A stretch of DNA of 64,000 nucleotides from a virus. The DNA lies in the IMG/VR virus record IMGVR_UViG_3300025133_000045, positions 1 to 64,000 of that record. The stretch is one strand, 5' to 3'. Positions 4,146 through 50,268 of this stretch are shown piece after piece. A model generated the notes under the pieces. That model was not told where the DNA came from and did no database searches. It was given only the letters and a program-made list of their open reading frames with translations. Every line of letters starts with the position of its first letter. Position 1 is the first letter of the stretch. Position numbers and translations under genes: made by a program.

Positions 4146-7100
4146 TTAATCTTCGAATGAAGCCCCAGTCCTCGTAATATTAAAGTCAATTGCAATGAAC
4201 TCAATCGCCCTTGCAGGCTTAAGGAAAATCTTAGCATACAAGATGTTGCGATCAATTAAGTCTGGGGTCGTAGTTGTTTCGTCAAGAACAACCTTAAACT
4301 CCGTAAGACCCATTCGAGCTTTAACACTCGCCAACAGCGGATTAACCTGTCCCGTAAAACGCTGCCATGTAGCCCGAACATTCTGGTCAAACAAGATACC
4401 AGCAGAAATCCTTGAAATCTTCTTCTTAATGAAAATCATCAAGCGCCGCACATTAATCCGATCCAAAGCAGAAGGCGTAACTTGAAGAGTCTTCTGGCCG
4501 AAGACCACAATGCCTTCGCTCGGGAAAGAAGCAATGGGGTTGATGTTCGCCTCATAGAGGGTGTCACGATCCGAAGAAGAGAGCTTTTGCGTAACAGCCG
4601 TAACTGGAATACCAGCCGCCCTTCCCTTGCTTAAGCCGCCCCTGTTGAAGCCAGCAGGAGCAAACCATACTTCAGACTTCCTCTCAGAACTCGCCAGTGT
4701 CCCCATGACAGCAACCGAAGGGGGTGCCCATAAGAATTGGCCAGTCATCGTATCCTGAATCTGAACCCACGGGTAGTGAGCACAAGCATAGCTCGAATTG
4801 ATGCTTCGATCTCGGAGAGCAGTCACAACGCCAGCAAGCGACGTAGCGTCAACCCTGGTCTGGAAGCTGTCAGCATTCTCAGTGAACGGTTGGTAGATAC
4901 CACGTAGATCAATGACTGCCAAAGCATCTGCCCTGTCTTCACAAGTATTAATGATGGCTTGTGTGAGGTTCTGGTTAACGATACCCGGAGCACTCAACAT
5001 GTTCATTTCAACAAACTCTGGATTCTTAACGGTATCGATAGCCTTCTTAACAGTGTTAAAAGCGTAGTTGTTTCTTATTGTCGCAGCAGAAGTTACAAAT
5101 CCATCTCGGAAAGGATCCTTCTCCGTGATGTCGAAACCATCAAAACCGCCATACAGAGGACTAGTGAAGCGGTTAAAGCCAGAATCAAGCACTGCGGTAT
5201 AAGAAGCCGAAGTGACTGAATCGCCCGCCGAAACCGTATTGATATTGCTTATGCCATTTCTCGAACCCGACATCCAATATGTCTTCACAGCAACGCCACC
5301 TGGTACAACAATATCATCCAAGGTGAAAATCCAAGAATACTCGTTGTTCGCGGGAGGTCCGCTTATAGTGTCGAACCCCGAAGTGCCAAGCGGCAAGCCA
5401 CGCAGATAGTCCCGATAACCCGGATCGAATTTTGTGGATTGCCTGTTCGCAGACCACTCGTTCGTTTGAAGGCCCCAATAAGCATCTTTCGGACTTGCCA
5501 TACCGTGGTCGGTACCCGAAAGTCGCGTAAGAGTCGATGGGAAGAAATACGATCCCGTAAATCGATAGTCTGCACTATCCTGAATAGAAGTTTGAACTGC
5601 CATTCCCGTCAGCCACGGCGCTTCACCCGGAGCCTTCGGAGCCATTCCAAGCCAGGAGCCCGCACAAGAACTCGTACCCTCAACATAAGAATAATTAGCA
5701 GTTGAATCGTAGTCCGCTGAAGCAGAACAGATCACAGACACACCGGCATCGCCAAGAAGGGGCAGGATGTTACGATAACCGGCTGTTTGAGGCCCAGATC
5801 CAGAAATAAGATTGAAACCAGGTGGGCGGGGAGGCCCGAACACACCGAACGGAAGCAGTCGAGTGTCCGCTGCATTGAGATTTGGATTCACTTCGATGCG
5901 GACAATTTCAGATTTATTGGCAAATTCGCCATACTCCCTCATCCGTGCATCCTCATAATCCCACACCAAGTACCTATCACCAATCTTTCTGGCAACATAA
6001 TTCGGCGATTGTGGATCAAGGTTACATTCTGAATACCTTTCAATGATTACAGGCTTTGCATCCGAATCCCAAGCTGCTCGAATAACAACCGTAAAGGATC
6101 CATAATTATTAAAATCATTGGTGGAAGCCTTGATATCCTGAATAGAAACCTTGTATTGTTCTTGGGCAGACTCTCCTTGATCCCTGGCATGTAAACAAAA
6201 TAGCTTAGTCATATTGGTTGCGTCGTAAGATGCAGTGTCGGTTGTCAAGTCTTGAGAGAAGAACCATCCAGTTCTTGGATTAATGTACTTCGTCTGTCGA
6301 TCTGCCCATTGATTGGAACCAGCGCTCGTGGAGGAGAGACTACCAGAGTTAACAGCCGCAATGAATCCATAAACTGTTCCGCTATTGCTGCCGAGCTTTT
6401 CAAAAAGGTGAGATTCATAAGTCTCTCCGAGCCAGTAGAGGTTTTGCGCCTCAGAAAGATTACTCTGATCGGTAATGACACTGTTTGTAAATGTTGGGTT
6501 TGTATTAAATGCCGTTCGAATGTACTGCCCACTATTACGATTAAAGTTAAATGTGGTTCTACGAGCTTTAGCCCCTAAGCTATCAAGCACTATGGCAGTA
6601 AAGCCGAGCGATGAATCTGACTCAACCACAAGACAAGAGCCCGAAGCCGGTAAGGGCGTATTGCCACCAGCGCTGTTACCAGAACTCCGTGCATTGCCAG
6701 AAAGAATCATAGATGATCCACTATTACAATACCAAATGGCTGCCAACGAGCCAGTTCCCATTGCAGCACCCGTAGATGCAGAGGGACAAATAAAGAGGCC
6801 GTAAGCGCCGCCTTTTTGAAACTTAAGAGCTTGGCCGCCTTGTGTAAATTCCACCTCTGTATTCCAGCCACCCATACCAGCCGTAGTGGCATCATTATTA
6901 GGGTGTGCATCACCGAGCATGCGGACATATGTTACAGGTCCAACCTGAGCATCCAGATAGGCTTGAGCCGCATAAGCGCCATAGGTGGGAGCAGAAATGT
7001 TGCCATCACGGAAGTAATCTCCACCACCACCGCCAGCAAGAGGGGCTCCAAAAACATCCACAAACTCGCTGAAAGATTGTACTGTATGGGGGCGCATTGC

Positions 7101-7229: not shown

Positions 7230-7278
7230 ACTTGTTAGTCTCCTGTAAATCGTTTTGAAGATTTATATTTTACGATAA

Positions 7279-8655: not shown

Positions 8656-8661
8656 TTTTCA

Positions 8662-28067: not shown

Positions 28068-29297
28068 TTAAAAGTCAACTTTTAGTTTGAATGTGAATTC
28101 GCGTCCCTCTGTTTTTTTGACTGGTGTTGCGAGGCTGGCAATGCCAATCATGTTCCTGTTTTCATCATAAATGGCGACCTTCGTTATGTATGTCTCCTTC
28201 TGAAAGCTTGCTGTCGGAAAAGCGAAGGAAGAACTCGCCATATTTCGAATCGTAAGCTGATTCTCTTCGAACAAGTGCGTTCCCGTTATAGCAGAAGTAA
28301 TCGATTGACTCTGTTCATATTCGATATAAGTGGGATTCGGAGAATAGTTCAACTGTCCCTTCTTTGCGTGAGCCAGCATTGTAAGTGTCGGCACTTCTTG
28401 AATGCCCTCAAAGCTCAAAGAATAGCTTGAAGAGGGTATAATAGAAGACGGATTACCATCGTTCGCCCCCACCCCGTAGTACAGCCATGAGCCAGTCTGA
28501 GGGTTGGTGACATCGTTGATATAGTCGTCAGCAAATTCAGTCATGCCCCAACTGCCAGTCAGAAGCAAGAAGCCCTCTTTGTAAAGGACCACACCAGCCA
28601 CTGACCCACTTCCATTTGCCTGCGAAAAAGCCGACCCACTAACTTGGATCAAATCACCGTTTTGTCTTTTGTCCTGTAACTCGCCAACAAGAGTACCTGA
28701 GACATAGAACTTTAGCTTGACTGTGCCCTTCTTGATCTCGGACCCATAAAAGATCGAGGGTATAGAAATGAGATTCAGAGGCTGCGTACTCTTGTCCCAT
28801 GCTTCTCCAGTTATGGTGGAAACATAAGAATAATTTTGGCTTATTGGCTTGTACTCATTAAGAGTGTTTCTAAGTGCCACTATACGAGGGCGTGTGGCAT
28901 TTTCTATGTAGAAGTTCCTCGTAATGCTCGCAGACAACGGATAGCTGCCAGAGAGAACATCGCCATACGAAAAATCAGAATTAAACTGAGTTGTGGAGAT
29001 GGTCTTAAAAGACGTAAGACTTCCCTGTTTTGTGACAAAGGGGTAGATTATAGCCTTGTCAGCAACATTATCGGATCCAATCAGTCTCCCTGTTGCCTCT
29101 TCAAGCCTGTCAACATTAAGCTCATAGAGGTTTAGGTTGCCAACAGGAACATTTGGAACACTGCTGGCAAACGCTCCCGACTGCTCAGATTTGTTATTGA
29201 GATAGATTTGACCATCATAAATTACAAATTCTGTCTTTGGGGAGGTCTTTAGAACATTGAAAAACTTGTCAGATTCCTCAAACTTATAAAGAGGCAT
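28068..29297 (-). CDS. Baseplate/tail-fibre attachment structural protein
   Basis: C-terminal YITKVAIYDEN..MIGIA.LATPVKK..FTFKLKVDF; paralog of next gene. Confidence 0.6.
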   Translation of the reverse strand: MPLYKFEESDKFFNVLKTSPKTEFVIYDGQIYLNNKSEQSGAFASSVPNVPVGNLNLYELNVDRLEEATGRLIGSDNVADKAIIYPFVTKQGSLTSFKTISTTQFNSDFSYGDVLSGSYPLSASITRNFYIENATRPRIVALRNTLNEYKPISQNYSYVSTITGEAWDKSTQPLNLISIPSIFYGSEIKKGTVKLKFYVSGTLVGELQDKRQNGDLIQVSGSAFSQANGSGSVAGVVLYKEGFLLLTGSWGMTEFADDYINDVTNPQTGSWLYYGVGANDGNPSSIIPSSSYSLSFEGIQEVPTLTMLAHAKKGQLNYSPNPTYIEYEQSQSITSAITGTHLFEENQLTIRNMASSSFAFPTASFQKETYITKVAIYDENRNMIGIASLATPVKKTEGREFTFKLKVDF

Positions 29298-29309: not shown

Positions 29310-30434
29310 TTAGTAATCAAGACGAACACGCAACGTCAACTCGTTTGTCGGAGTCTTCTTCAAGGGTTCAGAAATTTTAGCAACCGCCAACAGTTCATTA
29401 TCGGCTGAATATAGACCGACTGCCGTAATATAAGAAACTGGCATGTCTGTGCTCTTGTTCTTTGTAACGATCTTGCTCGCACTCAAATAAGTGGGGTTAG
29501 AAGAATAGTTGAAGTCGGTATGATTCGCCCGACAGAAGTAAATCGTAGAATTCAATTCAGTCGTGTTGTTGAAAGATAAGGTCTGGAGACAATTCCTGAA
29601 TCCATCTGCGGCTCCAGAAATAGAGGCACCTGTTAAATAAGATTGAACCGAAGCGCTGTGTGCTGCAAAATCATAAGATCCTGAACCTGGAGGTCCGAAT
29701 CCTCCATTACCGTAAGTTAGAGTTTGGCCTGGCAATTCACTGCCCGTGGCAAAGACCGAGGCTGTCAGAACCACAATGCCAGCCTGGTAATAGATCAGGC
29801 CAACCTTGGCACCCCCATCGGGAGATGAATCAGCCGCATACAAAAATCCATACTCGCCAGCGGGAGAATTTACTCTATAATCTGTGAGCGACCCACTATC
29901 ATTAATGACCGTAGGAACGGTTGTTGCTTCACGCATCGGAGGCCCATGCCCACCAGTTAACAGTGTCATCGAGAAAGAACCTTTCTTAATTTCGTCTTTC
30001 CCAAGAAGGCGTGCAAAGTTGATGAAAAAGGCAGCGGTATTAAGGCCCGAAGCTACAGTACCACCACTAAAATCACCGTCTTGATCGAAGTTTCGAATGC
30101 TTCCTGCCGCATCATATCCAACGAGCGTTTGAGCCATTTGATTGTAAACGTTAATCTTCTTGGCTTGCTGTGAATGGACTGCTGGAGCGGACTTTGAAAG
30201 GTCAGTATTGTCGGCTGAAAACCCACAGGTGATGTCGAGAATATGATTTGCCGAAGAACTCAAATAGGGGTAGTCATAAACGCTCTGGAACATGCCGTGA
30301 GCATAATTTTTAATATTACCCTCGTTAACATACGTCCCTGAAACGATTGTTCCAGTTACTGGGACTGCTTCATGAAGAAGAGTGCGCGTTGTCGCAACAT
30401 CATTATTCAAAAAGTTCTTAAATATTGTAGCCAT
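29310..30434 (-). CDS. Baseplate/tail-fibre attachment structural protein
   Basis: C-terminal YITAVGLYSADNELLAVAKISEPLKK..LTLRVRLDY. Confidence 0.6.
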   Translation of the reverse strand: MATIFKNFLNNDVATTRTLLHEAVPVTGTIVSGTYVNEGNIKNYAHGMFQSVYDYPYLSSSANHILDITCGFSADNTDLSKSAPAVHSQQAKKINVYNQMAQTLVGYDAAGSIRNFDQDGDFSGGTVASGLNTAAFFINFARLLGKDEIKKGSFSMTLLTGGHGPPMREATTVPTVINDSGSLTDYRVNSPAGEYGFLYAADSSPDGGAKVGLIYYQAGIVVLTASVFATGSELPGQTLTYGNGGFGPPGSGSYDFAAHSASVQSYLTGASISGAADGFRNCLQTLSFNNTTELNSTIYFCRANHTDFNYSSNPTYLSASKIVTKNKSTDMPVSYITAVGLYSADNELLAVAKISEPLKKTPTNELTLRVRLDY

Positions 30435-37500: not shown

Positions 37501-38309
37501 AGCGTTAAGATAGAATGAGAATGGGAGCCATGTTTAGCACCCGCCATATAAACGCCGCCCTGCTGATGAACAGCGCCATTCCATATTTCGCCTTCGGGCG
37601 TGTAGAATACATACGATTCAGAAACAACAGAACCATTGTCTATGACGATCTCTGAAGTTATCTGTTCCGATATAACTCCCTGATTCATATTATAGCCATA
37701 CATGTTCAAATTATAGTCTTGAGACATTTGAGTTATGTCGAAATAGCAGAACACAAAATAAGCCAGATGATTTGGCTGTGAGTCGTTTAGGCTAAAGGTG
37801 GCCTTATATGGTATATCAGCGCCAAGGTCTCTTCCAGTTTCATCCGTCGAATAGAAGCTCTTGGTGTCCTCTCCCTCTTTCGAGAGTGATATAATTTTTT
37901 CTTTATATGTTCCCCTATTGGCCTCGTCTAAAGCAATAACTTCTCCATTTATAAGCCTGTCTGTTAACGACTTGTCCACACTTTGGATTACTTTGATTTT
38001 CATATATTTCAAGAGTTCTGCATCATAAAACCAAGAGCTTAACTCAGAACTCTCGATGACATCTTTAACAATCAGATCAACCGTGATTAGCAAAGCTTTG
38101 GGAGAGGTTGTTGGTGGTTGAGATTTTGAATAAGCGACATTCCCATTTTTATCAAGCTTAACAGCATACTCTTGAATGTGGGGATTTTCCACCTCAATAA
38201 AAGCCGAGTTATTTTCCAACGTTATCTTGTTCACGAACACAGTTGGCATCAGTCTTTTTTCATAAGTGTCGTTACCAAAAACTCCAGCGTTATCAACTCT
38301 AGTCACCAT
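34515..38309 (-). CDS. Large virion structural protein (1264 aa)
   Basis: Long ORF in baseplate block; low-complexity C-terminus. Confidence 0.65.
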   Translation of the reverse strand: MVTRVDNAGVFGNDTYEKRLMPTVFVNKITLENNSAFIEVENPHIQEYAVKLDKNGNVAYSKSQPPTTSPKALLITVDLIVKDVIESSELSSWFYDAELLKYMKIKVIQSVDKSLTDRLINGEVIALDEANRGTYKEKIISLSKEGEDTKSFYSTDETGRDLGADIPYKATFSLNDSQPNHLAYFVFCYFDITQMSQDYNLNMYGYNMNQGVISEQITSEIVIDNGSVVSESYVFYTPEGEIWNGAVHQQGGVYMAGAKHGSHSHSILTLEKVINTTVQDFRDIDAPLAKEINLKPIESYLDRVGENYAASKVTVEDRSAYFSDAFVTRGLEAGGTISNFVFSFDFMELIKQQSQFGSLFTFSRNAEAKKRMLKLSRVITLKIFRHRANPQITFNKVGSPVKGGNLRIHPYNAFGKAPVLVVESGDINGSLKKEKKETEGSIREIYLRNTGDIRTYAVSDYTIDKETDGLYQYSVEVEVEDGTITYMNDILSKLSKSLGGFSLYYNLSTSPSFYDESTGQFKPEFMDYYDNKRPPVKPWVDAIAQFCQALSVLTDMGTAENTRLYKRLFTLCNPRSGTPAGIYGILGLIQKLEAILVERLGDKKSVNVNRVAKTGTSQSFEKFILKDAQLFSHLFDSEVPDQYGLEFMNLRNRNSYSGPHTFTIRDYKNRLVEENSKYFVPKGAKLSQQVLGVALPVADSDPFSGLKDLETYGATYLTPEAARNGSLTLSMSGKSGDMLANTEGFSDFSVSVLTREIQKHGNNVEPAPASTENNNERANFLGQLGVTVQSPFESKDLSTSAATSAASIDATVSSVGMLGVGDKFVSDALLMNSAFAPPVPDIDMKQIANMFSSNLNFMRNQRFSPDASFKGGTKVEQIKIGDLNLANNGAILENYSVPDSPGTYDTEAMRAIPNQIKSVIMSTDDMVKESWFAKDYDVANDTRTAAMFMWNYQNIAQVEYLVSYKHTSTEGIQVSAPVWAPLKFNILNTLARESSVILCRLVMYSDPVYKIGMSQFAQMPYYNSYFLLASDNKAAASPKPRARSSRSLASTLSGLGSRLSNELSKSGSSTNMRTVIRQEKAKNPQSYHDPYKDNGSLDNIVSTLMDEVSCLCVGKILIPETRPHVAGPTQEVAASNAVEDDTFSYNLDFIGAPLETSGKEPIQTFDYVDSYMQAVAGTSPTQASPTQATPQTQATPTDMELLSDLASQWDSLTLDLAQPAMLDGITGKTDSVLGGGAMDEPDTAAPSAFGGSSTMRGSSTMRGY
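34522..34556. repeat. 2 x 17-bp direct repeat, 18-bp period (encodes GSSTMR x2)
   Basis: CCCCTCATAGTGGAGGA twice. Confidence 0.9.
34719..34778. repeat. Imperfect 15-21 bp tandem repeat (encodes SPTQA/TPQTQA)
   Basis: Repeated TGTCGGTG..GCCTGTG units. Confidence 0.85.
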
Positions 38310-39373
38310 TAAGCCACTCCACTGTCTATCTCACACTTTTCACTTTCAATGTCTTCATCGGGATATATGTTCCCGGCAGTCAAAGAGGTGGCAAGATCAG
38401 GACATTTGAATTCTGTTTCGATATAGACACCTTGTGCTTTCAAATTCGATAAGGAGCTACAAATGGTGGCTTCATCAATTTCACTATCAACGAACACATC
38501 AAAAAAATACTCTGTAAAACTGGAGTCCAACTCCACATTAACATCATCAGTTTCAACTAAAATGTTGTTTACAATCTCTTGCTTTTTCTTTCTGAAGTTC
38601 ATCGGAATGAGATTTTCTCTGGAACCTCCATTAGAGAGCGTTTCGGTTTTAATCTCGTAGATTTCAATATCAAAATTCTCTCTCTCATAACGAGAATTTA
38701 TTTCCTCTAAGTCTAGCAGAATGTGGTCTGCTTGAACCGATACAAAAGTCCCGTCTGGAAAAATGCCCTCTTGCAGCGCCGGGTCAGACTCAACCGGCTG
38801 GTATGGGTCAGCCACTACAGGAGTTTCCTCACTACCTTCAGGCGACTCTGGCTTCATGTTGATGCTTTTAATGCGTGTTTTATATTTTATCGTTGCCTCT
38901 ACTTGAGGGATTTTTTGAAGGGAGTGGCTCCCCGTATAGACCATCGTAGAGCCCCTTATCTCGTTGTTGTAGAACCTCATCTTCCATGCAGGGGCCTTAT
39001 CAGCCGAGATATCAGAGTGCCCCAGAGGAGCATTTAAAGCCGTAAAGTGTTTATCCACCGTGGATGGAAACCTAATCTTTTGATCTTCCCTCAATCTAGG
39101 GTTGTCTGCCACAATCAAATTGTAAGATAAGACCTGTTCGCCTCGACCTTCAAATGAGTGCTGAGTCTTTGAAGAAGGCGTTTCGCTCTGAATCCGAGTT
39201 TCATAATCATTTTGAGAGCCCGAATATCCGGCATAACGTGGATCGTACAACACATTGTTGTCAAAAAACGAATAGTAGACCGGCTTAAACTTCCCCAGCG
39301 AAAGCAAATATTCCCCATATTTGGTAAGCTCTATATCGATTACATCTTGTTTCTGGTTAAAAAATGTCGTCAT
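38309..39373 (-). CDS. Baseplate structural protein, N-terminus paralogous to 30455..31387
   Basis: FFNQKQDVIDIELTKYGEYLLSLGKFKPVYYSFFDNNVLYD. Confidence 0.6.
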   Translation of the reverse strand: MTTFFNQKQDVIDIELTKYGEYLLSLGKFKPVYYSFFDNNVLYDPRYAGYSGSQNDYETRIQSETPSSKTQHSFEGRGEQVLSYNLIVADNPRLREDQKIRFPSTVDKHFTALNAPLGHSDISADKAPAWKMRFYNNEIRGSTMVYTGSHSLQKIPQVEATIKYKTRIKSINMKPESPEGSEETPVVADPYQPVESDPALQEGIFPDGTFVSVQADHILLDLEEINSRYERENFDIEIYEIKTETLSNGGSRENLIPMNFRKKKQEIVNNILVETDDVNVELDSSFTEYFFDVFVDSEIDEATICSSLSNLKAQGVYIETEFKCPDLATSLTAGNIYPDEDIESEKCEIDSGVA

Positions 39374-39421: not shown

Positions 39422-42400
39422 TCACTCTTCTGGCAAAAAGTCTGAATTCAAGACGGGGGGCGTATCTTCGATGTCGACTTGAGCTTCGATATTGGCAAAT
39501 TCAACCAAAGAGAAGAAGTCATACGGCCAGTTATATGAATATTTAACATTCGATACCTCTGTATCAGCGCCGCCCATCTTAAAGTTGAAAGAGAAATCTG
39601 TATCACCGCCAACACGCGACAACACTTTGCTATAGTAATTCCAATTCGCCCTCTGCTTAACCTTAAAGACCATCCATTTCACTTCACTCTGAAGGGCTCT
39701 TCCGGTGGCTCTTCCGGTGGCCCCCATAAGCTCGTTCGTAAGAAGGGGATGACTTATCGTACTTTCTGAGATTTCTATTTTGGAAGCGGCCTTGGGCGGC
39801 AGATTCTGCCACATATAGGTCAAATCATCCCGATCAAAGGTATGCTTAAACTCAAATATGTACATGGCTATCGGATCTACGCTGTCAAATTCCATAAAAT
39901 TAAACTTCGGAGGAATAACATATTTTTTCATGAGATCCAATTGATTTTTGATTGACTCTCCGACAACAAGTGCCGGGTCTGTGGTTACAGGCAACTCTAT
40001 CATTGAGGCACGATCAGGATCTTTTTCATTTAATCGATAAGCCTCTACGGTCACTTTTGGAATCTCAAAAAATGTTCGAACCCCACCATCCTCAATAAAC
40101 GGAATAGCAACAATAGCTTCGCTCACCTCAAATGATTCTGCTATTTGTCCTAACTTGATCCCGGTTTTATTAAACTTCATCTGGTCGGCCAAGCTGAGGT
40201 ACGATTTCCCCTGAGTAAGAAGCTCTGTCTGATAGTAATCAGTTGCCAGGCCGCCTGCAAAGGTTGGAACTTTATTTCTGACCCAATCGCTCCCAATGTC
40301 TGAGATTTCCATAAAAATTCCCTTATCATCAACATCGGGAGGCAACCCAAATTGATGCCACATGCCACGAGGAACAGTTGTCTTGCCATTGGCAGGCATC
40401 GTTAAGTTCCCCTGTGCCTCGGTTATCGGCCTTAAAGATCCAGACGTAGAGGTAAAATTCAACATTGGTGTTTCAAATTTTGGCTGAATGACCCATACGT
40501 TTTGTGTCGAGGCTGGATCATCCACCACCATAACCGGGGAACCATCAGGTCTATATTGTACAGAATTGACCTTGGCTTTGCCACTAACATTAATGGAAGC
40601 TGTTATTTGCATAGCATATTGATCCACATTGCTGCTATTGTAGGGCTTCGTGGCGTCTTGAACGCCATTACCTGCTTTTGTCCACTCAGAACCATCTACC
40701 CGCATACTGAGGATCTTTGCATCGCTCAAGATTTCATCCAAAGTGTGTCTGGGGTATGATGCTTTGAAAAGAATGTCACACCAGGCTTCTCCATCATAAT
40801 AGGGAGGAGTATAAGCCGGATTATACCCTTGCAAGGAATCCATCTTTGGTACAGCAGTTAAAACGGTTGCGAAGTCTCTTCCGGCAAGAGGAGGCCCAAA
40901 AGCTGTGGGACGGCTATACATTGTAAAAGTTTCTCTCAAACCATTTGCTTTTTCTTCCGGCGTAACTTGCGGAATAGGATAAGTTGTTTTTCCTGAAGAA
41001 GCCTCATAAGTTCTTTCTTGATTATAGCTCTTACGGAGCCTGATCCTCATAGCATAAACCTTGTTTGGCTGGAAGTTTTTAAAATCATTCTCCTTGGCTG
41101 AAATTATTGTTGACATTTGTCCATTGGGCAAAAACATATTGACACTCTCGGCCAAGAAGTTGTTGATCATCATTTCATAAAGCGGATCGCCTGACCCATC
41201 CCAGGAAGCGGTCATATTCATAGAGGCACTAGGATGAGGTTCCATATCCACAAAAGTCATATTTGAAATATAATCTGCTGGGCTAACCAGCGCCTCAAAA
41301 GGAACTCGATTATCAAAACCACTGGCGACTCCACCAGGGCCTCTGCCCCCACCATCAATGGAAGTTGGACGACCAATCATAAATATTTCAGCAGCACCAC
41401 CACTACCACTATTATTTACAACCTCATATGAGCCGCTGTACATTCCATAATCCACAGCTATGCCGGATTTAATTGTGTTATACATGATTCCTGGCGAATA
41501 GAACGGCTGTAAGAATGGCCTCAAAGCCGCTTTCGGGTAAGTGACACCATCGGTTACTGGACTGGCAAAATCTATACCACCCTTCACATTTACAAAGCGC
41601 GCATAAGACTGAGAGAACTGCGATGCCAAGTCCAAAGTCCTCTGTGCCGGATAGAATCCGTCATACGGAAGGAATTTTTTAATTGCCTTGCATCGCAAAG
41701 TAATCTTGGCTGGGCTCTTGAACCCTACGTGATCCGTGTATATCGTCTCAAAGCGCCTCATAAAATCTGAATTGCTGAAGATCTTGTAGAAATCGCTTCC
41801 ACTACTGTTTTGTGGTAACGTACCGGAAGCCCCAAAAATCTCAAACATTCTGGGATTGTCGGCAAGCCAATCGCCCACACCATTCTTAAGATATTTGTCG
41901 ATGTGCTCACTGATTCTAAATTCCGGTATGATAGAATACTCTTGGCTTTTCAGAATAGCATCTTTCATGTTGCTTTCATAATCAGGATCAATAGGCTCCC
42001 TTACACCAGAGACAAAAGAAGTAACGGCTGTCGTAATCGTGTTGCCTGCTTCGTCCACTGAATTCTCAATAGTTGTTTTAATTGTGCCCGCTAACCTGTT
42101 GGCTTCCCAGAGTGCATCGCCACTATAAATCTGAACATCCCCTTGGCGACGACTTGGATCAACTGTATTCGTAACACTGCCCGTTTGTGGGTTATCCAGC
42201 GTTATGCAAGTCGTAGACATCGTTGCAAAAAGCATATGCTTTCGCGCATATAAGGCTGAAGCGGTGATAAACTGTTTTGCCCCATTATGGACCATCAGAT
42301 AATCATTTTGCAATTCTCCTCCTGCACTTGAAGAAGCATTAGAGGCTGTACAGATGACCCCATCTGAGAAAATCTGAGAAGCATCGAGAGCCCAAGCACT

Positions 42401-45400
42401 TTGCGTTAACTGGTTGAACCGCCCATTGTATGGAGCCCCCATGCTGCTGCTCTTTTCAAAACCAAGAGTTGTTCTTTTAGCTCTCGTAGTGTCCCAAAAC
42501 TTAACTTTAAAATTCTGCCTCTCTCGGATCATTTCCATGCCAGCGTTATAAGACGCAGGATAAACTACTTGCCCGTACCTTAGAGATACAAATTCCTTTA
42601 CAGGCGTAGTTGGGTCGTTAAGAGCCCCGTTAAGATAAGCCTCTTTGATCCTATCATAAGCTGTATAAATGGTGTTCGGATTGACAGATACCAACTCTTC
42701 TAAAGCTCTATTCGAAAACCTTACAGTTTCGTTTCCATAAGAGGCATCAACAACAACTTGTTTTACCTCCATTCTCGGAGTGCCATCAGTTTCTATACCC
42801 ACTTGAGACTGGATGCCCAGCACAAATTGCAATGGCTTTGATGATTTATCAACAGGTGGCTCGGTAAATGTCTGTAGAGGCCCAAACCGATCCACCACGG
42901 GGGGTATCAGTAAACTGCCGAAGGTCATTAAAGTCCCAGGCACGCTCGCTGCTGTAGGCGCACCCGTGTAATATCGCATTATCCCAGGCGTATGGTTGAT
43001 CGTGATCGTATTATTTTTCCGATAATATCTTACAAGCTGGTGCTCTGCTGTTCTTGTCTGCTTCCAAGATGGATAGCCATAATAGCCATCACGATGGATA
43101 AGAACATCATGAAGAACGGAAGCAGTAACTGGTTGCACACCAACATTGACCTGTTGGATAAAAGAATCAGTGATCGTAGTGGTATCGGGAGCCGTATCGA
43201 TGTCGCCATAGTTCACATAGTAGCCGACTGGAGTAGTGCTTCCCGCAGAAGAAGTTACAATTTGATGCCCCAAGATAGCCTCTGAAGCGGTCATGGGTTC
43301 CACAATATTTGTATTCAAGTGCCTTGTCTGGGGAACTGATGAATCTGCTGCTGCTGCCAGATTGATGTAATCTCCACCATAATCTCGGACTCCAGAATCG
43401 TTATAACTCACAAAATCCGATGAGGAAACAAAGTTGATAGAACTTACAATTCCAGCAGAAGTTGACAGTAGGCCGTCTGGGGAACCATGACCATAGCTCA
43501 AAGACCCAGTATACGAAGCAGTGATCCAAGCGTAGCTTAGCTCCATCTGTGGGATTTCGTGTGTCACATATCCATTGTCGTAAACGCTGGCTGTAAGAGT
43601 TACCGCATCACCGGACGGCAATCCAGCCAATGGTCCCCAGGTCGTCGTTCCACTAAGCTCTGGTCGCTTAAGGGTATTTCTGTTTACTTTCTGGTAACTT
43701 CCGGTCCCACTATAATTGGCCGCATTTACAGTCGAAGCTCCAGAGCCTCCCCTATCCTGTACATTGCTGAAGAAACCAAACTGGTTAGCATGGTTGACCA
43801 ACAAGATCCTTTCAAGAGGAGTTCTAACTGTCAGATTCCGGTACGGCAATGCATTGTAAGGCGAATATTGACCAGATTCAAGATCAAGGCAATAGCCTCC
43901 ATTTGCATCGCCTGCGGTTTCAGGACCACCTGGTGCCGAGAACCTCTCCACGAAAACCCAATCATGCTTGCCTCTATCGGGCCTAGCATAGTCCACAATG
44001 CCTGTCACATAAGTTGAAGGGATGGCTGTCGATGACACGCCCTCGTTGTCAACAAAATAAACATTGTTAATGTCTCGACCAGAAGTTTGCACAATGTCAT
44101 AGAAATGTTCAAAGTTGCCGATATTAGAGCGTAACGACCCAGAAATAAATTCTGTCTGTGCTGGTCCGATGTCAGTGGAAGTTCCAGCGGGCAATGTTGT
44201 TTTATAAGCCCCCACGTCACTAGCAGTCATCTGAATATTGCGAATATTTACAGGGCGTTTGGCCACTTCATCACGGAGCAAAGAAGCTTCAGGGCGTCGT
44301 GAATTCGCATATGTCGTTGTCATTCTACGCGACTGAAGTGTTAAAACGCCGCCTGCTGTGATTCCTAAATTCCAAGCTTCTGGCCTTGTTGCAGAGCTTG
44401 TCAAGGTCGGGTCAGCAACCAAGCCAATGTGGCGATACTGATTTCCTCCGACATACTTTTCAGTGAACGGGCCTTGCATCGGGACTTCCATGTCCCCGCC
44501 ATAGACATCGTGATGATAGTTGTCCAGGCCCACACTGCCAATGTGCTGCATGGTTCCGGCACCATCTGGAACATCAGCCTGATATCCTGTTGTCACCGAC
44601 GAACTATAGAGGCTAAACGGAGCATAAATTTCCCCTATTCCCTCGGCTGTATAATCGTCGCCCCGCAGCCCAGCATCTCCAGATTGGAAAAGATATTTTG
44701 AACTGACCTCTTTCTTATCTATTTCAGGGGGGACTAGCGCATCATTACAGCTTTTTTCAGACTCAATCGACCCAATCATTGCGAGCGAGTCACTCGCAAA
44801 CGGAGACAAAGCTCCCCGCGTAAAACCAAAACGTTTACGTTGAGTAAAACTAGGTCCGCTCTTTACACTCTTCTCCTCGTCTACATTAAAATTATAAATT
44901 TCATCAAACCTTCTCAACGCAAAGGCTGAGCCTTGATAAGTCGTAGTTGGAAGAGTCCTTGTGGACTTGGCCAATGTAGGGCCAGGCGAACCTGTTCTGT
45001 AAGTCTCTATGACTTCTCGGTATTTCTCCCTATCTGAGTCTATCGCAGAGCCTGCGAAGTCATCAAATTTAATATTTGTTCTCTCGGCCCTGTCTTGCCA
45101 CCAAAGACAATTCGTATTCTCGTTGTCGTTAATGGGCGCATGACCATATTTCCAATCGTATTTAAGCTCCGTGATGCCGCGAACAGCGGCTTCTGGATCT
45201 GTAACCTTCATTTCGAGTGTCGGGAACTTATTCCAATATTTGTTTCTTTCGAGAGCGTGGCTCTCAACCATTGTTCGAATACCGTCCGAGAAATCAGCAG
45301 TAGCAGGAACCAGTTGCTGAAGCATCACTGACAGGGAGTTGTCGATCCATTTGTAATATTCGATATATTTGTCAAGATCGGGAGTGTTTCCAACACGCTC

Positions 45401-48400
45401 AAAGAAAAGCTCTCGGAGTTTCTCCAACTCTTTGTAATCTTGTCTGTAACGATTCTTGGGATCCCCGATGAGATTGTTGAACTCTACCACCGTCCCAAAG
45501 AAATTCATAATTTCTTGAGTGATGGTCCCATACATGCTCTTCTCAAAGGAGAAATAATAATTTATTGGCCTGGTGTCTCTCGTAAATTCTATGTCATCCT
45601 GTCGACTAAGAATGCTAATTGTATCCTGGCTGCTAAGTGTTTCCGGTGCGTTCTGGCGAAGACTATCGATATATGCCCGATCTACAGCACCAGTGCTTGA
45701 AGTCCGCATATTGTATGCTTGACCAGGATATTGATATCCGATTGTCCGAGCGAACTGAGGATTATTTTCATTATCGTGATAGCGATCGAATCTACCTGTC
45801 GAGCCGGAAGAGAAATCGTCAACTAAAAACTCTCCGCTTGAGTCAGAGCCCGTAACATTATCAAAGTCCCAATGGAGAGCCAGAGTCTCCATTTCTGGCA
45901 CCCAAGTGCCTGTTAGGGCTGTCTGCAACAAGAATGTACTTCGATAAGGACGGAGCGAACCAAAATTCCTTGGATCTTTCGCATGGGCTCTAATTGCTTC
46001 ATTCTCCAAGTAGCTTTCCCAATGTCGGAGCGAGGAAGCTCTAACATCAGACTGTTCAACAACAGAGCCTGTCCAGTTTGTTCTTGCAGCGCCCACGTAA
46101 TATCGATGATCTGCCGTCAAATAAGCACTTGCGGTCAGAGCCGAAGAGGTGAGGAGAAACTCATTCTTCAGGAGGCCAGACTCATAATTCACACCATATA
46201 ATTCAAGTTTAAGATAAGTGTCGTCAATGTCATAGTCTGTGGCGCTGCCAGCAGTTGAACCGGAAGCTCCATCAGCTACAGGATATTTTACATTCCTTGT
46301 TCGAACAGCGAAATTCCACCTTTGATTATCGTAGAGATTTGGATAGGCACTGGTTGTCAGATAAAATTCGGGAGTGGCTCCCTGATTCGATTTAAAGACC
46401 AAATAAGCATCTGAGGATTCTAAATCTGGCCGAACTGCGTAGAGGCTCCAACTATAGTCATCAGCCGTTGCAGCCTGCACATAACAAGTTTCATCGCCTG
46501 CCGTCTTGAGTCTGTGCGTTCCGAAAATAGAGGAAGACAGAAACGACGTTGAAAACCAGGATAGACTGCCTCGATCTCCCACCTTCTTGGGGAAAATTAC
46601 ATCTATCTCGGCGGTGGTCGGAATATAGGGTCCAACCGTTCCAGAAACAAAGGTAACATTGCTTGCGTGCGGATTCGAACTACGAGACTGTTGCGTTACA
46701 ACGCCCGAAAAACTGTCGGGGTGATTGAAGTTGGCATAGTTTTTACGAGAAACCACAGGATCATAATTGTCTCTGACTTTATAAGTTGCGTTGTTGCCGT
46801 ATAGATTGAGTCTAACAACCTCATCCCCAACACCAAAGCAACGAATAAGGTTCCTGAAAGACTTTAACGTTCCCTTGGACTTGTAGATGTAGATCAGATT
46901 GTTGTAAATATTTTTATAGATCCTGTTTTTAACCTCGCCTAAGTCGAGATTAAAATTCCTCTTCTCATCTCGACTCATAAACTCGGCTAATATACTGGCG
47001 TCGGCAAAAATTTCAGGAGCTTGCATTCCATAGTTTGCAACAAGGCGATTAGCAATCGGGATGGTCTTGTTTGAGCTACTTGCATAAGTGGCGTCCTTCA
47101 GGCGAGGAAACTCTTCCAACTGAAGGTGTAGGGAATCCGCATAGCTGCCCACAATTTGCAACATTTGCTTAAGAGTCCCTGGATCTTCATCAACAATCCA
47201 AGCCGGTATCCTGTTATAGAGTGTCGAGTTGTTCGTATAATCAAATACACTTCCTGATTGTATGAAGTCACTTCTCCTCGTTTTGAGCGTTGGATATTCT
47301 GGTCGAATAATGGGATCTTCAAACTCAGCGGCCAAGGCCGAAGCGGACACCATAGCAGAGCCCGTATTTCTCGCCAAAGAGCCTGGATAATTGACCCAGT
47401 TACCGTTTGATATCCTTCCACTGTAATCGAGCACAATGGAATCTAACGAATCCGTACCCGTAGCCCCTTCATTAAATTTATAATATACGCCCAGACCAGC
47501 ATTGGATACATCGGAATTAGAGCCTCCACGAACTTGCCTGAAGAAGTTTAAACCGATGTCCTCTGCGGTTCGATAATCCTTCCAATATCTGAATTCATCG
47601 AGTGAAGCAGAAAGCCTTGCGGAGCCCTCCATGCTTAAGCTATCATAAGCGTTACCAGAAGGAGTCGTCCTCAAGCCACCAATAAAGCTCTGTAAAGACC
47701 CCGTTACTTCCCCAAAAGTCATATCTGAAGAGGCTGTACTCTCTATGTATGCCCCACTATGGAAGAATTTCGCCTTAAGCTCTGCGTCGGCTGAACTGGA
47801 TTGAAACGAGAATCCAACATGATTCCAATTACCATCCAAAGAAGAAGTGGTGATGCTCTCGCCAAACTGCATATCCCAGACGCTAGAGCCAGAAGCCATA
47901 TGAACCCTGAAAGGATATTTACCCTCATCACCATGGCCACTCGCTGTAAGGTAGACGAGCAGTCTACCATAGCCTGCACTAGAAGATGCTTCACCATTCC
48001 AGAGATCAAAAACTGTTTCCTTCTCCGTGAGTGATGTGTCCCACCCGTTCTTCTTTATCCAGAACTCTACCGAAACGCCAGTCTCTAAATGGAAACGAAG
48101 ATTGGATGCCCTAGTTCCGTATCTTAGACCTTGGTATTCCCTGTCTGTATTATAAATATCCGTATCATAGTAGTTGGCACCCGCAAACTGAGTGCCGAGC
48201 GAACCAGCCGCCATTCCACCAGAAGCTGTATGTGGGCCTCCCTTAGTTACGATATATTCTGCACTGCTGGGTGTTCCCCACCCGTTAACTACACTGGCCT
48301 GAGTATAGGTGCCGTGACCTAAAGTGACATACCCGGTTGTACGAGGATATTGTTTCTCAAAGATATACAGATCAAAATATGAAGAACTATTGAAATATTC

Positions 48401-48661
48401 GGTTATTTCCGCTTCAGAACCATCATACGGAAAAGTGTCTGTAATTCGATCAAAAGCGTCTTCATAATATTTCTCGGCAGACCCAAAACGAACAAAATTG
48501 TTGGGATCACTATAGTCTATACGAGGTATAAACCTCTCTCTTTCTTCGACTTTGGCCCTTACATTTCTGCCAGACTCAACCTTCTCCGTAACTTTTTGAA
48601 GATCAGAGCTTTTTAAGATTTTATAGGGTGTTCCTTTATCGAATAAGTCTCTAGTTCCCAT
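39422..48661 (-). CDS. Giant baseplate wedge/fibre protein (3079 aa) with LamG-like domains
   Basis: VEFWIK..WNHVGFS..LDEFRYW LamG pattern; YIYKSKGTLKS..LIRCFG wedge (gp7/gpI-like) motif; follows the gp6-like gene and its neighbour. Confidence 0.7.
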   Translation of the reverse strand: MGTRDLFDKGTPYKILKSSDLQKVTEKVESGRNVRAKVEERERFIPRIDYSDPNNFVRFGSAEKYYEDAFDRITDTFPYDGSEAEITEYFNSSSYFDLYIFEKQYPRTTGYVTLGHGTYTQASVVNGWGTPSSAEYIVTKGGPHTASGGMAAGSLGTQFAGANYYDTDIYNTDREYQGLRYGTRASNLRFHLETGVSVEFWIKKNGWDTSLTEKETVFDLWNGEASSSAGYGRLLVYLTASGHGDEGKYPFRVHMASGSSVWDMQFGESITTSSLDGNWNHVGFSFQSSSADAELKAKFFHSGAYIESTASSDMTFGEVTGSLQSFIGGLRTTPSGNAYDSLSMEGSARLSASLDEFRYWKDYRTAEDIGLNFFRQVRGGSNSDVSNAGLGVYYKFNEGATGTDSLDSIVLDYSGRISNGNWVNYPGSLARNTGSAMVSASALAAEFEDPIIRPEYPTLKTRRSDFIQSGSVFDYTNNSTLYNRIPAWIVDEDPGTLKQMLQIVGSYADSLHLQLEEFPRLKDATYASSSNKTIPIANRLVANYGMQAPEIFADASILAEFMSRDEKRNFNLDLGEVKNRIYKNIYNNLIYIYKSKGTLKSFRNLIRCFGVGDEVVRLNLYGNNATYKVRDNYDPVVSRKNYANFNHPDSFSGVVTQQSRSSNPHASNVTFVSGTVGPYIPTTAEIDVIFPKKVGDRGSLSWFSTSFLSSSIFGTHRLKTAGDETCYVQAATADDYSWSLYAVRPDLESSDAYLVFKSNQGATPEFYLTTSAYPNLYDNQRWNFAVRTRNVKYPVADGASGSTAGSATDYDIDDTYLKLELYGVNYESGLLKNEFLLTSSALTASAYLTADHRYYVGAARTNWTGSVVEQSDVRASSLRHWESYLENEAIRAHAKDPRNFGSLRPYRSTFLLQTALTGTWVPEMETLALHWDFDNVTGSDSSGEFLVDDFSSGSTGRFDRYHDNENNPQFARTIGYQYPGQAYNMRTSSTGAVDRAYIDSLRQNAPETLSSQDTISILSRQDDIEFTRDTRPINYYFSFEKSMYGTITQEIMNFFGTVVEFNNLIGDPKNRYRQDYKELEKLRELFFERVGNTPDLDKYIEYYKWIDNSLSVMLQQLVPATADFSDGIRTMVESHALERNKYWNKFPTLEMKVTDPEAAVRGITELKYDWKYGHAPINDNENTNCLWWQDRAERTNIKFDDFAGSAIDSDREKYREVIETYRTGSPGPTLAKSTRTLPTTTYQGSAFALRRFDEIYNFNVDEEKSVKSGPSFTQRKRFGFTRGALSPFASDSLAMIGSIESEKSCNDALVPPEIDKKEVSSKYLFQSGDAGLRGDDYTAEGIGEIYAPFSLYSSSVTTGYQADVPDGAGTMQHIGSVGLDNYHHDVYGGDMEVPMQGPFTEKYVGGNQYRHIGLVADPTLTSSATRPEAWNLGITAGGVLTLQSRRMTTTYANSRRPEASLLRDEVAKRPVNIRNIQMTASDVGAYKTTLPAGTSTDIGPAQTEFISGSLRSNIGNFEHFYDIVQTSGRDINNVYFVDNEGVSSTAIPSTYVTGIVDYARPDRGKHDWVFVERFSAPGGPETAGDANGGYCLDLESGQYSPYNALPYRNLTVRTPLERILLVNHANQFGFFSNVQDRGGSGASTVNAANYSGTGSYQKVNRNTLKRPELSGTTTWGPLAGLPSGDAVTLTASVYDNGYVTHEIPQMELSYAWITASYTGSLSYGHGSPDGLLSTSAGIVSSINFVSSSDFVSYNDSGVRDYGGDYINLAAAADSSVPQTRHLNTNIVEPMTASEAILGHQIVTSSAGSTTPVGYYVNYGDIDTAPDTTTITDSFIQQVNVGVQPVTASVLHDVLIHRDGYYGYPSWKQTRTAEHQLVRYYRKNNTITINHTPGIMRYYTGAPTAASVPGTLMTFGSLLIPPVVDRFGPLQTFTEPPVDKSSKPLQFVLGIQSQVGIETDGTPRMEVKQVVVDASYGNETVRFSNRALEELVSVNPNTIYTAYDRIKEAYLNGALNDPTTPVKEFVSLRYGQVVYPASYNAGMEMIRERQNFKVKFWDTTRAKRTTLGFEKSSSMGAPYNGRFNQLTQSAWALDASQIFSDGVICTASNASSSAGGELQNDYLMVHNGAKQFITASALYARKHMLFATMSTTCITLDNPQTGSVTNTVDPSRRQGDVQIYSGDALWEANRLAGTIKTTIENSVDEAGNTITTAVTSFVSGVREPIDPDYESNMKDAILKSQEYSIIPEFRISEHIDKYLKNGVGDWLADNPRMFEIFGASGTLPQNSSGSDFYKIFSNSDFMRRFETIYTDHVGFKSPAKITLRCKAIKKFLPYDGFYPAQRTLDLASQFSQSYARFVNVKGGIDFASPVTDGVTYPKAALRPFLQPFYSPGIMYNTIKSGIAVDYGMYSGSYEVVNNSGSGGAAEIFMIGRPTSIDGGGRGPGGVASGFDNRVPFEALVSPADYISNMTFVDMEPHPSASMNMTASWDGSGDPLYEMMINNFLAESVNMFLPNGQMSTIISAKENDFKNFQPNKVYAMRIRLRKSYNQERTYEASSGKTTYPIPQVTPEEKANGLRETFTMYSRPTAFGPPLAGRDFATVLTAVPKMDSLQGYNPAYTPPYYDGEAWCDILFKASYPRHTLDEILSDAKILSMRVDGSEWTKAGNGVQDATKPYNSSNVDQYAMQITASINVSGKAKVNSVQYRPDGSPVMVVDDPASTQNVWVIQPKFETPMLNFTSTSGSLRPITEAQGNLTMPANGKTTVPRGMWHQFGLPPDVDDKGIFMEISDIGSDWVRNKVPTFAGGLATDYYQTELLTQGKSYLSLADQMKFNKTGIKLGQIAESFEVSEAIVAIPFIEDGGVRTFFEIPKVTVEAYRLNEKDPDRASMIELPVTTDPALVVGESIKNQLDLMKKYVIPPKFNFMEFDSVDPIAMYIFEFKHTFDRDDLTYMWQNLPPKAASKIEISESTISHPLLTNELMGATGRATGRALQSEVKWMVFKVKQRANWNYYSKVLSRVGGDTDFSFNFKMGGADTEVSNVKYSYNWPYDFFSLVEFANIEAQVDIEDTPPVLNSDFLPEE

Positions 48662-48672
48662 TATTAATAATC

Positions 48673-50268
48673 CTAAATTTGCTGTTCTTCAACTCTAAAC
48701 TTGAACATATCTGGCTGTTCGACCCAAGTCCCAATGGCTCCGTTGTAAAAAGCAAATTTAACCCCATAAGCATAATCACCGTCCAGCATCCCCATATCTA
48801 AGTCAAAGTAGCTTCCGCTCACATCAAAGGAAAGCTGTGTATGTAAGTTGCTTCCTGTCCCATAGGGCACTACCTCCAAATCATCAGCTATTCTATAAAC
48901 CATGTAAGACGCACTTTGAATAATCGTACCTTCGATAGCTGTTGTAGCCTTGGTGTAAATAGTTGGATTCCAATCTTTTTTACGAACATACAATCTAAAG
49001 CGAGCTTTCTCTTTTCTGCTATAGATGGGTTTCAAGTTAGTAATCGCTAGAGCATAATTTGTTGATGGATTGATATTAGACGAGTCCTGCATTTTTGGTT
49101 TAATCGAGCCGGTGTGAAACCTCGTCTTCATGTGATCGCCGTCTACAATCGAACCCGTTGACCACACATCATAAAGGGTAGAAATAGGGGTTGCTGCGGA
49201 AGTTATGGCGACAGAACACGTATAAACGCCCGTTGAATACCATCCACCTGTCGCAAATGTTTCGGCTGCAATCGTAACACCGCCACCAATACTTAACTCC
49301 AACGCCGATGCTGAGGGGGTTGTGTCAGCCGCTGACCCCGAATAAAGACTGACCATAACGGAGCCGGTCTCGCCTACCTCTGGAATATTTTTAAGTTGCC
49401 CTCGGACGTAATTGTATAAAAATAGGGTATTTAAATTGTCAACTCCAGGTGCCAACGAACTACTGTAAGCGAAATCGCCTCGATTGTCCTTCTTGCTGGA
49501 ATCCCACCTGGCTTCTATGATTGGCCTCCGAAAGAAGAATTCAGAACTCCTGCTAAAGAATTTCTTGGTGTAATATGATTTCACTGCTCCTGAAAGATTG
49601 GGAACGGCATATGTGGCGTAGCTCTCATTGTACGCCTCTTGTGTCCCTGTAAGCTTAAGGATCAAGCCATAGTTCAACAAATCTCCATTAACATTACCGT
49701 GATCATTGGCCCACATTTCAACTAATGGCGTAATGTCCTTTTCAAGGTCTTCCGTACCATTGGGAAAATAGATTTTAAAAACCTTGTTTGGGCTGCTATC
49801 ATCGTTGACAAAATCTCCACCTTTATGTTGCCAAGAGCCTGTTAAGCCTCCTCCGTCCCACGTTGCTCCTTGCTTGCCATATGTAAGATCTGTATACTGC
49901 TCCATATCCAGACCAGTCCCTTCCCCCCAACTGCGCGTAACGGCCTGCGCCATCAGATACATATCTCTCGGCACAGTTTGGCTATGCGGAGCGCTAAACA
50001 TTCTCAGATAAAAGCTAACACTGCCACTTCGTGGAATCACGCTCGAACTACGATCCGTCTGAATCTCACTGACTGGGAACTTGATAAGTGCTCGTGTCAA
50101 TTCAGACGACAAGCCTGCCACGGATCCGCTTGCCTCGCCATAGATGGAAAATATTTCCAATACGTCAGCGCCGCCCATGTTTGCGCCCGTTCCACGAGTG
50201 CTTAGATCAGCCTTAAAGGCATTGGTAATCGTAGTATCGGCATTTGCATAATATCTTTTAATGCCCAT
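48673..50268 (-). CDS. Virion structural protein (baseplate-associated)
   Basis: ADTTI..RALIKF..W.EG.G..P.IEARWD pattern; very SGS/TGS-rich. Confidence 0.6.
   Translation of the reverse strand: MGIKRYYANADTTITNAFKADLSTRGTGANMGGADVLEIFSIYGEASGSVAGLSSELTRALIKFPVSEIQTDRSSSVIPRSGSVSFYLRMFSAPHSQTVPRDMYLMAQAVTRSWGEGTGLDMEQYTDLTYGKQGATWDGGGLTGSWQHKGGDFVNDDSSPNKVFKIYFPNGTEDLEKDITPLVEMWANDHGNVNGDLLNYGLILKLTGTQEAYNESYATYAVPNLSGAVKSYYTKKFFSRSSEFFFRRPIIEARWDSSKKDNRGDFAYSSSLAPGVDNLNTLFLYNYVRGQLKNIPEVGETGSVMVSLYSGSAADTTPSASALELSIGGGVTIAAETFATGGWYSTGVYTCSVAITSAATPISTLYDVWSTGSIVDGDHMKTRFHTGSIKPKMQDSSNINPSTNYALAITNLKPIYSRKEKARFRLYVRKKDWNPTIYTKATTAIEGTIIQSASYMVYRIADDLEVVPYGTGSNLHTQLSFDVSGSYFDLDMGMLDGDYAYGVKFAFYNGAIGTWVEQPDMFKFRVEEQQI

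Follow-up and report, generated by a model that had tools for sequence, protein, structure and literature searches.

The DNA analyzed here, referred to as the window throughout, is a stretch of 64,000 nucleotides (IMG/VR record IMGVR_UViG_3300025133_000045, positions 1 to 64,000) that makes up the initial 64 kb of a viral contig of 99.8 kb. It contains the structural module of a distant, marine T4-like myovirus, with nearly all genes on the minus strand, and the structural genes identified encode a gp23-type major capsid protein (MCP), tail sheath, gp13-like neck protein, tail tube, baseplate hub, and gp6-type baseplate wedge. The subject of this study is a tripeptide, [S/T]-G-S (below [ST]GS), that recurs in several of these virion proteins, together with an operon of sugar and glycosyltransferase (GT) genes whose last member reaches into the right end of the window. 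A first-pass annotation had proposed that the tripeptide marks sites of O-glycosylation or another modification, coating head, neck, sheath, and baseplate in a glycan shield. The nearest sequenced MCPs (40–52% identity) are those of LR756508 (an uncultured, 484-kb phage), Flavobacterium phage immuto, Microcystis phage Mel-JY01, and Rhodothermus phage RM378. At least 599 relatives of the MCP were found in IMG/VR, and the clade is very abundant.

Expected motif numbers were calculated from per-protein shuffles. On this basis, the window holds 61 [ST]GS where 17.9 are expected, with the excess falling mainly on seven to eight proteins (Table 1), and the seven per-protein counts given by the first-pass annotation were each reproduced exactly. 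SGS (34 observed, 10.0 expected, 3.4-fold, z 7.6) and TGS (27 observed, 8.2 expected, 3.3-fold, z 6.6) rank first and second among all tripeptides of the window. The enrichment, suggested earlier to be independent of composition, survived the shuffling and proved specific to the motif. Other arrangements of S, T, and G were found at 0.5–1.9 times their expectation (GSS, SSG, GST, STG, and similar ones at 1.0–1.5), xGS with x other than S or T at about 1, and [ST]Gx with other third residues at 0.3–1.6 ([ST]GT 1.6). An S/G/T-rich composition was therefore ruled out, as permutations of the same letters stay near expectation. The observed number also exceeded the 36 copies expected under a first-order Markov model, an expectation that is inflated by the motif itself. 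The codons used at the motif are mixed, so that the signal lies at the protein level and a DNA-level word was ruled out. The graded variants SAS, TAS, SSS, and TGT were enriched as well, more weakly ([ST]AS 2.2-fold). The surrounding sequence context is weak: hydrophobic residues alternate at positions −4 and −2, while K, D, and P are depleted nearby, with Asp at −1 reaching 0.25 times its expectation. Two further observations concern the tripeptide spectrum of the window: [ST]GN was strongly depleted (3 observed, 11.5 expected, 0.26-fold), and TQA was the third most enriched tripeptide (13 observed, 3.4 expected).

Table 1. Features of the window discussed in the text, with observed and expected [ST]GS numbers
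Feature	Position	Strand	Assignment or remark	[ST]GS observed vs. expected
Tail tube (internal)	3475..4089	minus	PHROG 4542 tail tube	0
Tail sheath, 1027 aa	4146..7229	minus	PHROG 23 (E=1e-68); Pfam sheath C-terminal domains	7 vs. 1.5
gp13-like neck/head-tail adaptor Ad2, 425 aa	8662..9939	minus	PHROG 211	5 vs. 0.6
gp23-type MCP, 630 aa	10365..12257	minus	Pfam Gp23 (E=1e-70)	7 vs. 1.0
409-aa virion-module protein	28068..29297	minus	no Pfam or PHROG family	5 vs. 0.7 (P=0.001)
374-aa paralogue-like neighbor	29310..30434	minus	adjoins the 409-aa gene	3 vs. 0.7 (P=0.03)
354-aa baseplate-module protein	38309..39373	minus	weak motif case	2 vs. 0.2 (P=0.02)
3079-aa giant baseplate/fiber-module protein	39422..48661	minus	motifs along the whole length	17 vs. 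3.9
531-aa baseplate-module protein	48673..50268	minus	adjoins the wedge gene	9 vs. 0.9
gp6-type baseplate wedge	50268..52067	minus	PHROG 219/6	0
2270-aa protein	52515..59327	minus	no PHROG family	0 vs. 0.9
RmlB-like nucleoside diphosphate (NDP)-sugar 4,6-dehydratase, 3' part	63451..64000	minus	last gene of the sugar/GT operon	

Orthologues were collected for the sheath, neck, MCP, and tube (39), and 36 sheath, 66 neck, and 80 MCP orthologues were tallied by region. Across the sheath orthologues, 198 [ST]GS were observed against 49.9 expected; the corresponding values were 136 and 30.0 for the neck and 249 and 61.2 for the MCP. Pooled over 211 target proteins, TGS was enriched 4.7-fold and SGS 4.3-fold, and 456 neighboring proteins gave 0.9-fold and 1.3-fold, respectively. 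The 3079-aa protein has orthologues with 12–31 motifs in relatives (about 4 expected), and 20 distinct orthologues of the 531-aa protein carry 3–9 each (about 1 expected). The same protein-by-protein pattern was found in a remote lineage, designated G006, whose structural proteins are ~30% identical; its homologues of the 374-, 3079-, and 531-aa proteins hold 4, 12, and 7 motifs (0.9, 2.6, and 1.1 expected). The [ST]GS excess is an old, maintained trait. The individual sites, by comparison, are mobile. Only one of the 66 motif columns in 36 sheaths is strongly conserved, and two of the 51 in 80 MCPs are well conserved, so that the number of motifs is kept while the sites turn over. Among the 531-aa orthologues, some columns are conserved (TGS in 16 of 20, TAS in 4 of 20) and others turn over.

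Inside the individual proteins, only accessory outer regions show the excess. All seven sheath motifs of the window lie in an inserted outer region (residues 159–654), the neck motifs lie in the N-terminal half, and six of the seven MCP motifs fall in the insertion segment, as had been noted before. Over the orthologues, the sheath insert holds 204 [ST]GS (45.7 expected), the N-terminus none (3.9 expected), and the conserved C-terminal core one (6.2 expected). The MCP insertion holds 236 (53.3 expected), the N-terminus none (6.4 expected), and the core 20 (14 expected), and in the neck the values are 137 (28.6 expected) for the N-terminal half and 4 (6.2 expected) for the Ad2 core. From the architecture of T4 gp18 and gp23, we take the sheath insert and the MCP insertion to be outward-facing parts.

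No homology was detected between the motif-bearing segments: cross-hits stayed at the chance level, and paralogy was limited to motif-free C-terminal domains, one of which is all that the 409- and 374-aa proteins share. Pfam domains were likewise not found over the motif regions. A single shuffled accessory domain that carries the motif was thus ruled out at the sequence level, the segment cross-hits being equal to the chance expectation, and the earlier statement that the motif occurs in unrelated folds holds insofar as no sequence homology links the segments. AlphaFold2 (AF2) models were mediocre (mean predicted local distance difference test score, pLDDT, 58.7 and 51.1) and were read for secondary structure only, not for solvent accessibility. 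In the MCP model, the six motifs of the insertion domain lie at strand-loop junctions, in a part of the model with a pLDDT of 72–90. The predicted placement in exposed loops was borne out to the extent that motifs sit at strand ends and in hairpin loops of outer domains, an agreement that concerns secondary structure and not accessibility.

Several proteins of the same module are devoid of the motif. The tail tube, without [ST]GS in the window, has none in its 39 orthologues either (6.9 expected), and the gp6-type wedge lacks it in the window, in every relative examined, and in G006. Orthologues of the 2270-aa protein have 0–3 copies (1.1–1.8 expected), and those of a scaffold-like protein have 2 in total (8.0 expected). 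Zero counts in the terminase, the portal, the Mre11-Rad50 fusion, the wedge, and the 2270-aa protein agree with the first-pass annotation, as does the finding that the 2270-aa protein is rich in xGS (18 observed, 8 expected) with neither S nor T at x. Avoidance of the motif in non-virion proteins genome-wide was considered and rejected, since these proteins, the rest of the contig included, hold 18 copies against 10.4 expected; motif-rich proteins beyond the window, at 89.8–93.0 kb of the contig, mean that the remaining proteins show no genome-wide depletion. Depletion is limited to specific internal parts, namely the tube, the wedge, and the conserved cores. The claim that the motif is restricted to outward-facing proteins is accordingly correct for the excess in outer regions and too strict with respect to the motif itself, which is not absent elsewhere. 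The proteins in question are encoded beside lysis genes (contig 89826–93021). One, of 478 aa, holds 6 [ST]GS (1.4 expected), and another, of 486 aa, gave weak MAM/CBM96-like hits. Both are possibly additional components of the virion, or secreted.

Glycosyltransferases, which the first-pass annotation suggested looking for to the right of rmlB, are present directly beyond it. They belong to a tightly packed operon that runs on the minus strand from contig position 77600 down to 63451 and adjoins the baseplate genes. It starts with a PD-(D/E)XK nuclease, two GT4 genes (421 and 414 aa; GT4-421 and GT4-414), and a GT4N/GT2 fusion, continues with WecB, a GT-D-like protein, GNAT, a DegT/PseC-like aminotransferase, and a WavE-like protein, and ends with a beta-phosphoglucomutase-type HAD, an RmlA-like nucleotidyltransferase, a sulfotransferase, and the RmlB-like dehydratase. 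The latter matched Pfam GDP_Man_Dehyd/Epimerase and, below the cut-off, the NCBIfam dTDP-glucose 4,6-dehydratase (E=2e-80). GT4-421 and GT4-414 scored 40.3 and 29.4 bits against Pfam Glycos_transf_1 (gathering cut-off 26.4), in line with GT4 enzymes, which are retaining and of the GT-B fold. The E-x7-E signature (EGFGL...E) is kept in 7/7 homologues of GT4-421 and in 6/7 of GT4-414, the second open reading frame (ORF) of RM378 being degenerate, and is also present in G006. Judged by this signature, both enzymes of the tandem pair are apparently active. In G006 the pair directly precedes the baseplate genes; pseudogenization or TGA recoding of its second GT4 was ruled out, the first TGA being the normal stop codon.

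Credible transmembrane segments were found in none of 21 cluster proteins (an Rce1-like control protein scored 4), and Pfam scans of the operon revealed neither Wzx, Wzy, WaaL, or a transporter nor families of polyprenyl-phosphate initiating transferases. Without a membrane protein or Wzx/Wzy/WaaL, the locus alone cannot build a glycan for export. Among 80 related loci, the nuclease-GT4-GT4 core was present in all 72 with enough flank, and GT2 in 44 of 68. The remainder is a hypervariable cassette in which each sugar gene is sporadic (0–25% of the loci); the sulfotransferase was found in none of the 80 loci and GNAT in four. Only 7 of 50,697 sequenced phage records contain the GT4-421 family, all of them far-T4 relatives. 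In metagenomes, Tara Oceans samples included, the family comprises at least 7,362 clusters at 90% identity; one of two IMG/VR scans with divergent GT4 representatives gave no match.

Several divergent homologues of GT4-421 (the latter encoded at contig 75234–76499), among them P0158, P0122, and P0187, are 800–900 aa long and have an intein directly after EGFGL. A fusion of two GT4s was ruled out for these proteins: in several lineages, the extra length is an intein (Intein_splicing plus LAGLIDADG endonuclease) within the catalytic motif. The targets of intein homing are usually conserved positions in genes that are indispensable to a phage. The DegT/PseC-like ORF (contig 68818–70247 region) has only 202 aa compared to ~370 for the family and is followed by a 274-aa ORF without a family match; a split or a rearrangement of this gene is possible. 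A 225-aa protein (contig 77602–78279), encoded immediately upstream of the nuclease-GT4-GT4 core, is kept in 73 of the 80 related loci; its match to Pfam ATLF (anthrax lethal factor N/C-terminal domain) is borderline, with 27.2 bits against a cut-off of 27.4.

The octamer ACTAHTTA was found 24 times on the gene strand and not once on the other (window 2316–52088 and contig up to 98487), mostly 9–50 nt upstream of gene starts, among them those of the tube, sheath, neck, and baseplate genes and of the GT operon, where a copy at contig position 77650 lies 49 nt upstream of the operon. Its strand bias and start-proximal position make it a credible late or middle promoter element.

The suggested co-occurrence of motif and enzymes was found in related phages, where [ST]GS enrichment accompanies the conserved GT4 pair (Table 2). 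The cultured carriers of GT4 are immuto, Mel-JY01, and RM378. The motif-rich proteins of immuto include a hypothetical protein of 373 aa (L027:28174-29295) with 12 [ST]GS (1.3 expected) and a 1053-aa protein at 97.6–100.8 kb with 26 (5.9 expected). In LR756508 (L180:5432-9877), a cytidylyltransferase and a GT29 sialyltransferase-like gene come after the single GT4 homologue and make up a different glycan toolkit, of the sialic-acid type.

Table 2. GT4 genes and [ST]GS enrichment in the compared genomes
Genome	GT4 genes	[ST]GS, observed/expected	Individually enriched proteins
This contig	tandem pair	3.1 (overall)	7
G006	tandem pair	2.3	several homologues
Immuto	tandem pair	2.5	9
Mel-JY01	tandem pair	2.4	10
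RM378	first GT4 plus degenerate second	2.7	5
T4 structural module	none found	0.4	0
Cyanophage WH25-B	none	1.3	0
LR756508	first GT4 only, then sialyltransferase-like set	1.4	1 (borderline)

The reading that we consider best is that [S/T]-G-S, and in weaker form [S/T]-[A/S]-S and [S/T]-G-T, is a candidate O-glycosylation acceptor for soluble GTs of the phage; we assign it a probability of roughly 0.45. Enriched about fourfold on outer regions of head, neck, sheath, and baseplate, the motif may indicate the points at which the phage decorates its own particle with sugar. One GT4 would prime Ser/Thr in exposed turns with the first sugar, the second GT4, and GT2 where present, would extend the glycan, and the variable cassette would supply strain-specific sugars. 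For the phage studied here, the products expected from the cassette are a dTDP-4-acetamido-4,6-dideoxyhexose, UDP-ManNAc, and a sulfate ester. The acceptors would be assembled or assembling virion proteins, and the soluble GTs would reach them in the cytoplasm, a location suggested by the lack of membrane proteins in the cluster. The particle would end up with a variable coat of glycans. In favor of this reading are the specificity of SGS and TGS, the upkeep of motif numbers as sites turn over, the recurrence in G006, the restriction to outer regions without homology among the motif segments, the universal GT4 pair with its E-x7-E signatures, the confinement of the GT4-421 family to far-T4 relatives among sequenced phages, the inteins in its catalytic motif, the co-occurrence of pair and enrichment, the LC-MS data on immuto DNA given below, and the late-type promoter motif ahead of the operon. 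The broader proposal, that the entire supergroup (this clade and the immuto-, Mel-JY01-, and RM378-like phages) coats its virions at [S/T]-G-S, with the GT4 pair reading the sequon and the cassette, in this phage with a pathway to a sulfated amino-deoxyhexose, setting the 'serotype' of each strain, is put forward tentatively. A number of points weigh against acceptor sites of this kind. By sequence, the GT4s are generic and have no tie to a protein acceptor. Some MCPs of the clade have no [ST]GS at all, LR756508 shows no [ST]GS enrichment despite its homologue of the first GT4, and ACTAHTTA also precedes some non-structural genes. The GT4 carriers all belong to one supergroup, so that the co-occurrence is phylogenetically confounded, represents few independent events, and may go back to just one or two. 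As for the chemistry of any modification, the sequon is a prediction from sequence and unproven. The glycan shield of the first-pass annotation is thus in the position that the computational checks ran in the direction it predicted, the modification itself is only predicted, and the co-occurrence is confounded.

The main rival explanation is a turn preference, in which fast-evolving, beta-rich outer domains favor [S/T]-G-[S/T/N/A] at strand ends, and the GT/sugar operon acts on a small molecule or, with host machinery, on a host envelope glycan. The pattern at conserved columns, where T stays T and S stays S at the first position and the third drifts from S to N, A, or T, resembles what the conservation of an ordinary turn would give. 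The AF2 models put the motifs at strand-loop junctions and in hairpins, where a structural turn is to be expected. The alternating hydrophobic residues at −4 and −2, the concomitant enrichment of SAS, SSS, and TGT, and the confounded co-occurrence also fit such a preference. However, if a type II'-like turn were favored, VGS, YGS, [ST]GN, and [ST]GD should be enriched to the same degree, but they were seen at 0.3–1.1 times expectation, and the homologous virion proteins of T4, the cyanophage, and LR756508 have no such preference. Moreover, the motif re-arises at non-homologous positions of hypervariable segments, and the cluster lacks the membrane component that envelope glycans need. We regard a turn preference as a serious possibility, albeit one that we doubt. 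Remodeling of the host surface is disfavored by the same lack of membrane machinery.

It is unlikely that [ST]GS serves another modification (phosphorylation, direct O-sulfation, or Ser acylation) or the docking of a decoration protein. A specific, exposed pattern with turnover of sites needs no more than some reader of the motif, and the cassette of this phage does hold a sulfotransferase and a GNAT. Among the related loci, however, these two genes are absent or rare, as given above, while the enrichment is clade-wide; the two GT4s are the only universally linked enzymes, and no kinase was found among the scanned proteins of the sugar operon and selected virion proteins. An artefact of composition or of looking at many tripeptides has next to no chance of being correct. 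The target proteins are indeed rich in S, T, and G, and some tripeptide must rank first, but the permutation and replication tests refute this explanation: the excess is held by two related tripeptides at the first two ranks and not by permutations of their residues, it survives the first-order Markov expectation, and it was found again in hundreds of orthologues as well as in a lineage of 30% identity while being absent in T4 and the cyanophage. For the homologous system of immuto, which has the same GT4 pair, glycosylation of DNA is disfavored. Liquid chromatography-mass spectrometry of immuto DNA gave canonical dA, dC, and dT, with formyl-preQ1 in place of dG, and no glycosylated nucleoside is mentioned (bioRxiv 10.1101/2023.04.13.536721).

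Compared to known systems, candidate O-glycosylation at [S/T]-G-S would combine familiar elements in a different way. To our knowledge, virion glycosylation by phage enzymes is documented only in actinobacteriophages, where it shields the particles from antibodies. O-glycosylated virions have been described for the mycobacteriophages Che8, Corndog, and Myrna (Freeman et al. 2023, as cited in PMC12619734), and the glycans are placed there on C-terminal tails of capsid and tail-tube subunits. Both systems have in common a proposed cytoplasmic glycosylation of phage structural proteins by GTs that the same phage encodes, resulting in a glycan coat, and a linkage of the GTs to structural genes, here through the operon that adjoins the baseplate genes. 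In contrast, the candidate sites described here are copies of a discrete internal tripeptide, distributed over the folded outer parts of no fewer than seven proteins, none of them lies in the tube, and the phages are T4-like marine myoviruses and not actinobacteriophages. The actinobacteriophage precedent invoked by the first-pass annotation therefore differs in the very parts that are modified: C-terminal capsid and tube tails there, a motif-free tube here.

GtfA/GtfB is a cytosolic GT4 pair that O-GlcNAcylates serine-rich repeat adhesins at S-A-S-type repeats. It resembles the phage enzymes as a soluble GT4 pair with Ser/Thr flanked by small residues as target, in line with the enrichment of SAS, TAS, and SSS. 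However, DUF1975 is missing here, no GtfA/GtfB was among the PDB matches at E≤1, and the targets are folded domains instead of long repeats. An arrangement of one catalytic and one non-catalytic partner, as in GtfA/GtfB, was rejected, since both phage GT4s keep E-x7-E. The best solved match of GT4-421 was chlorovirus B736L (NY-2A, PDB 3OY2). As proposed for the phage here, chloroviruses use soluble enzymes of their own to glycosylate their capsid (PBCV-1 Vp54), and they do so at non-canonical sites. The similarity is weak (E=1e-6), though, chlorovirus glycans are N-linked at another sequon, and the function of B736L is itself unproven. With loci of the O-antigen or enterobacterial common antigen type (RmlA/RmlB, WecB, WecE/WecD-like), the cassette shares the sugar-nucleotide enzymology and a gene content that is hypervariable between relatives, but it has no Wzx/Wzy/WaaL, no initiating transferase, and no membrane protein. 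The general O-glycosylation of Bacteroidota uses the sequon D-(S/T)-(A/I/L/V/M/T) and periplasmic transfer, whereas Asp is depleted at −1 here and the cluster enzymes are all soluble. Our literature searches yielded no paper with an [S/T]-G-S O-glycosylation site or with virion glycosylation in this phage group.

As three carriers (immuto, Mel-JY01, and RM378) are in culture, the hypothesis is directly testable. If it holds true, phages would gain their first described case of protein O-glycosylation directed by a sequon, and the minimal, cytoplasmic combination of a soluble O-glycosylation tag and enzyme pair would be of use for glycoengineering. The many 'LPS-like' (lipopolysaccharide-like) sugar genes of marine phage genomes would then need reinterpreting. 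The system would extend across a supergroup of T4-like phages, marine and freshwater, that is abundant and found around the globe; there, variable glycan coats could bear on how particles adsorb, aggregate, and decay, on grazing, and on their recognition by host defenses.

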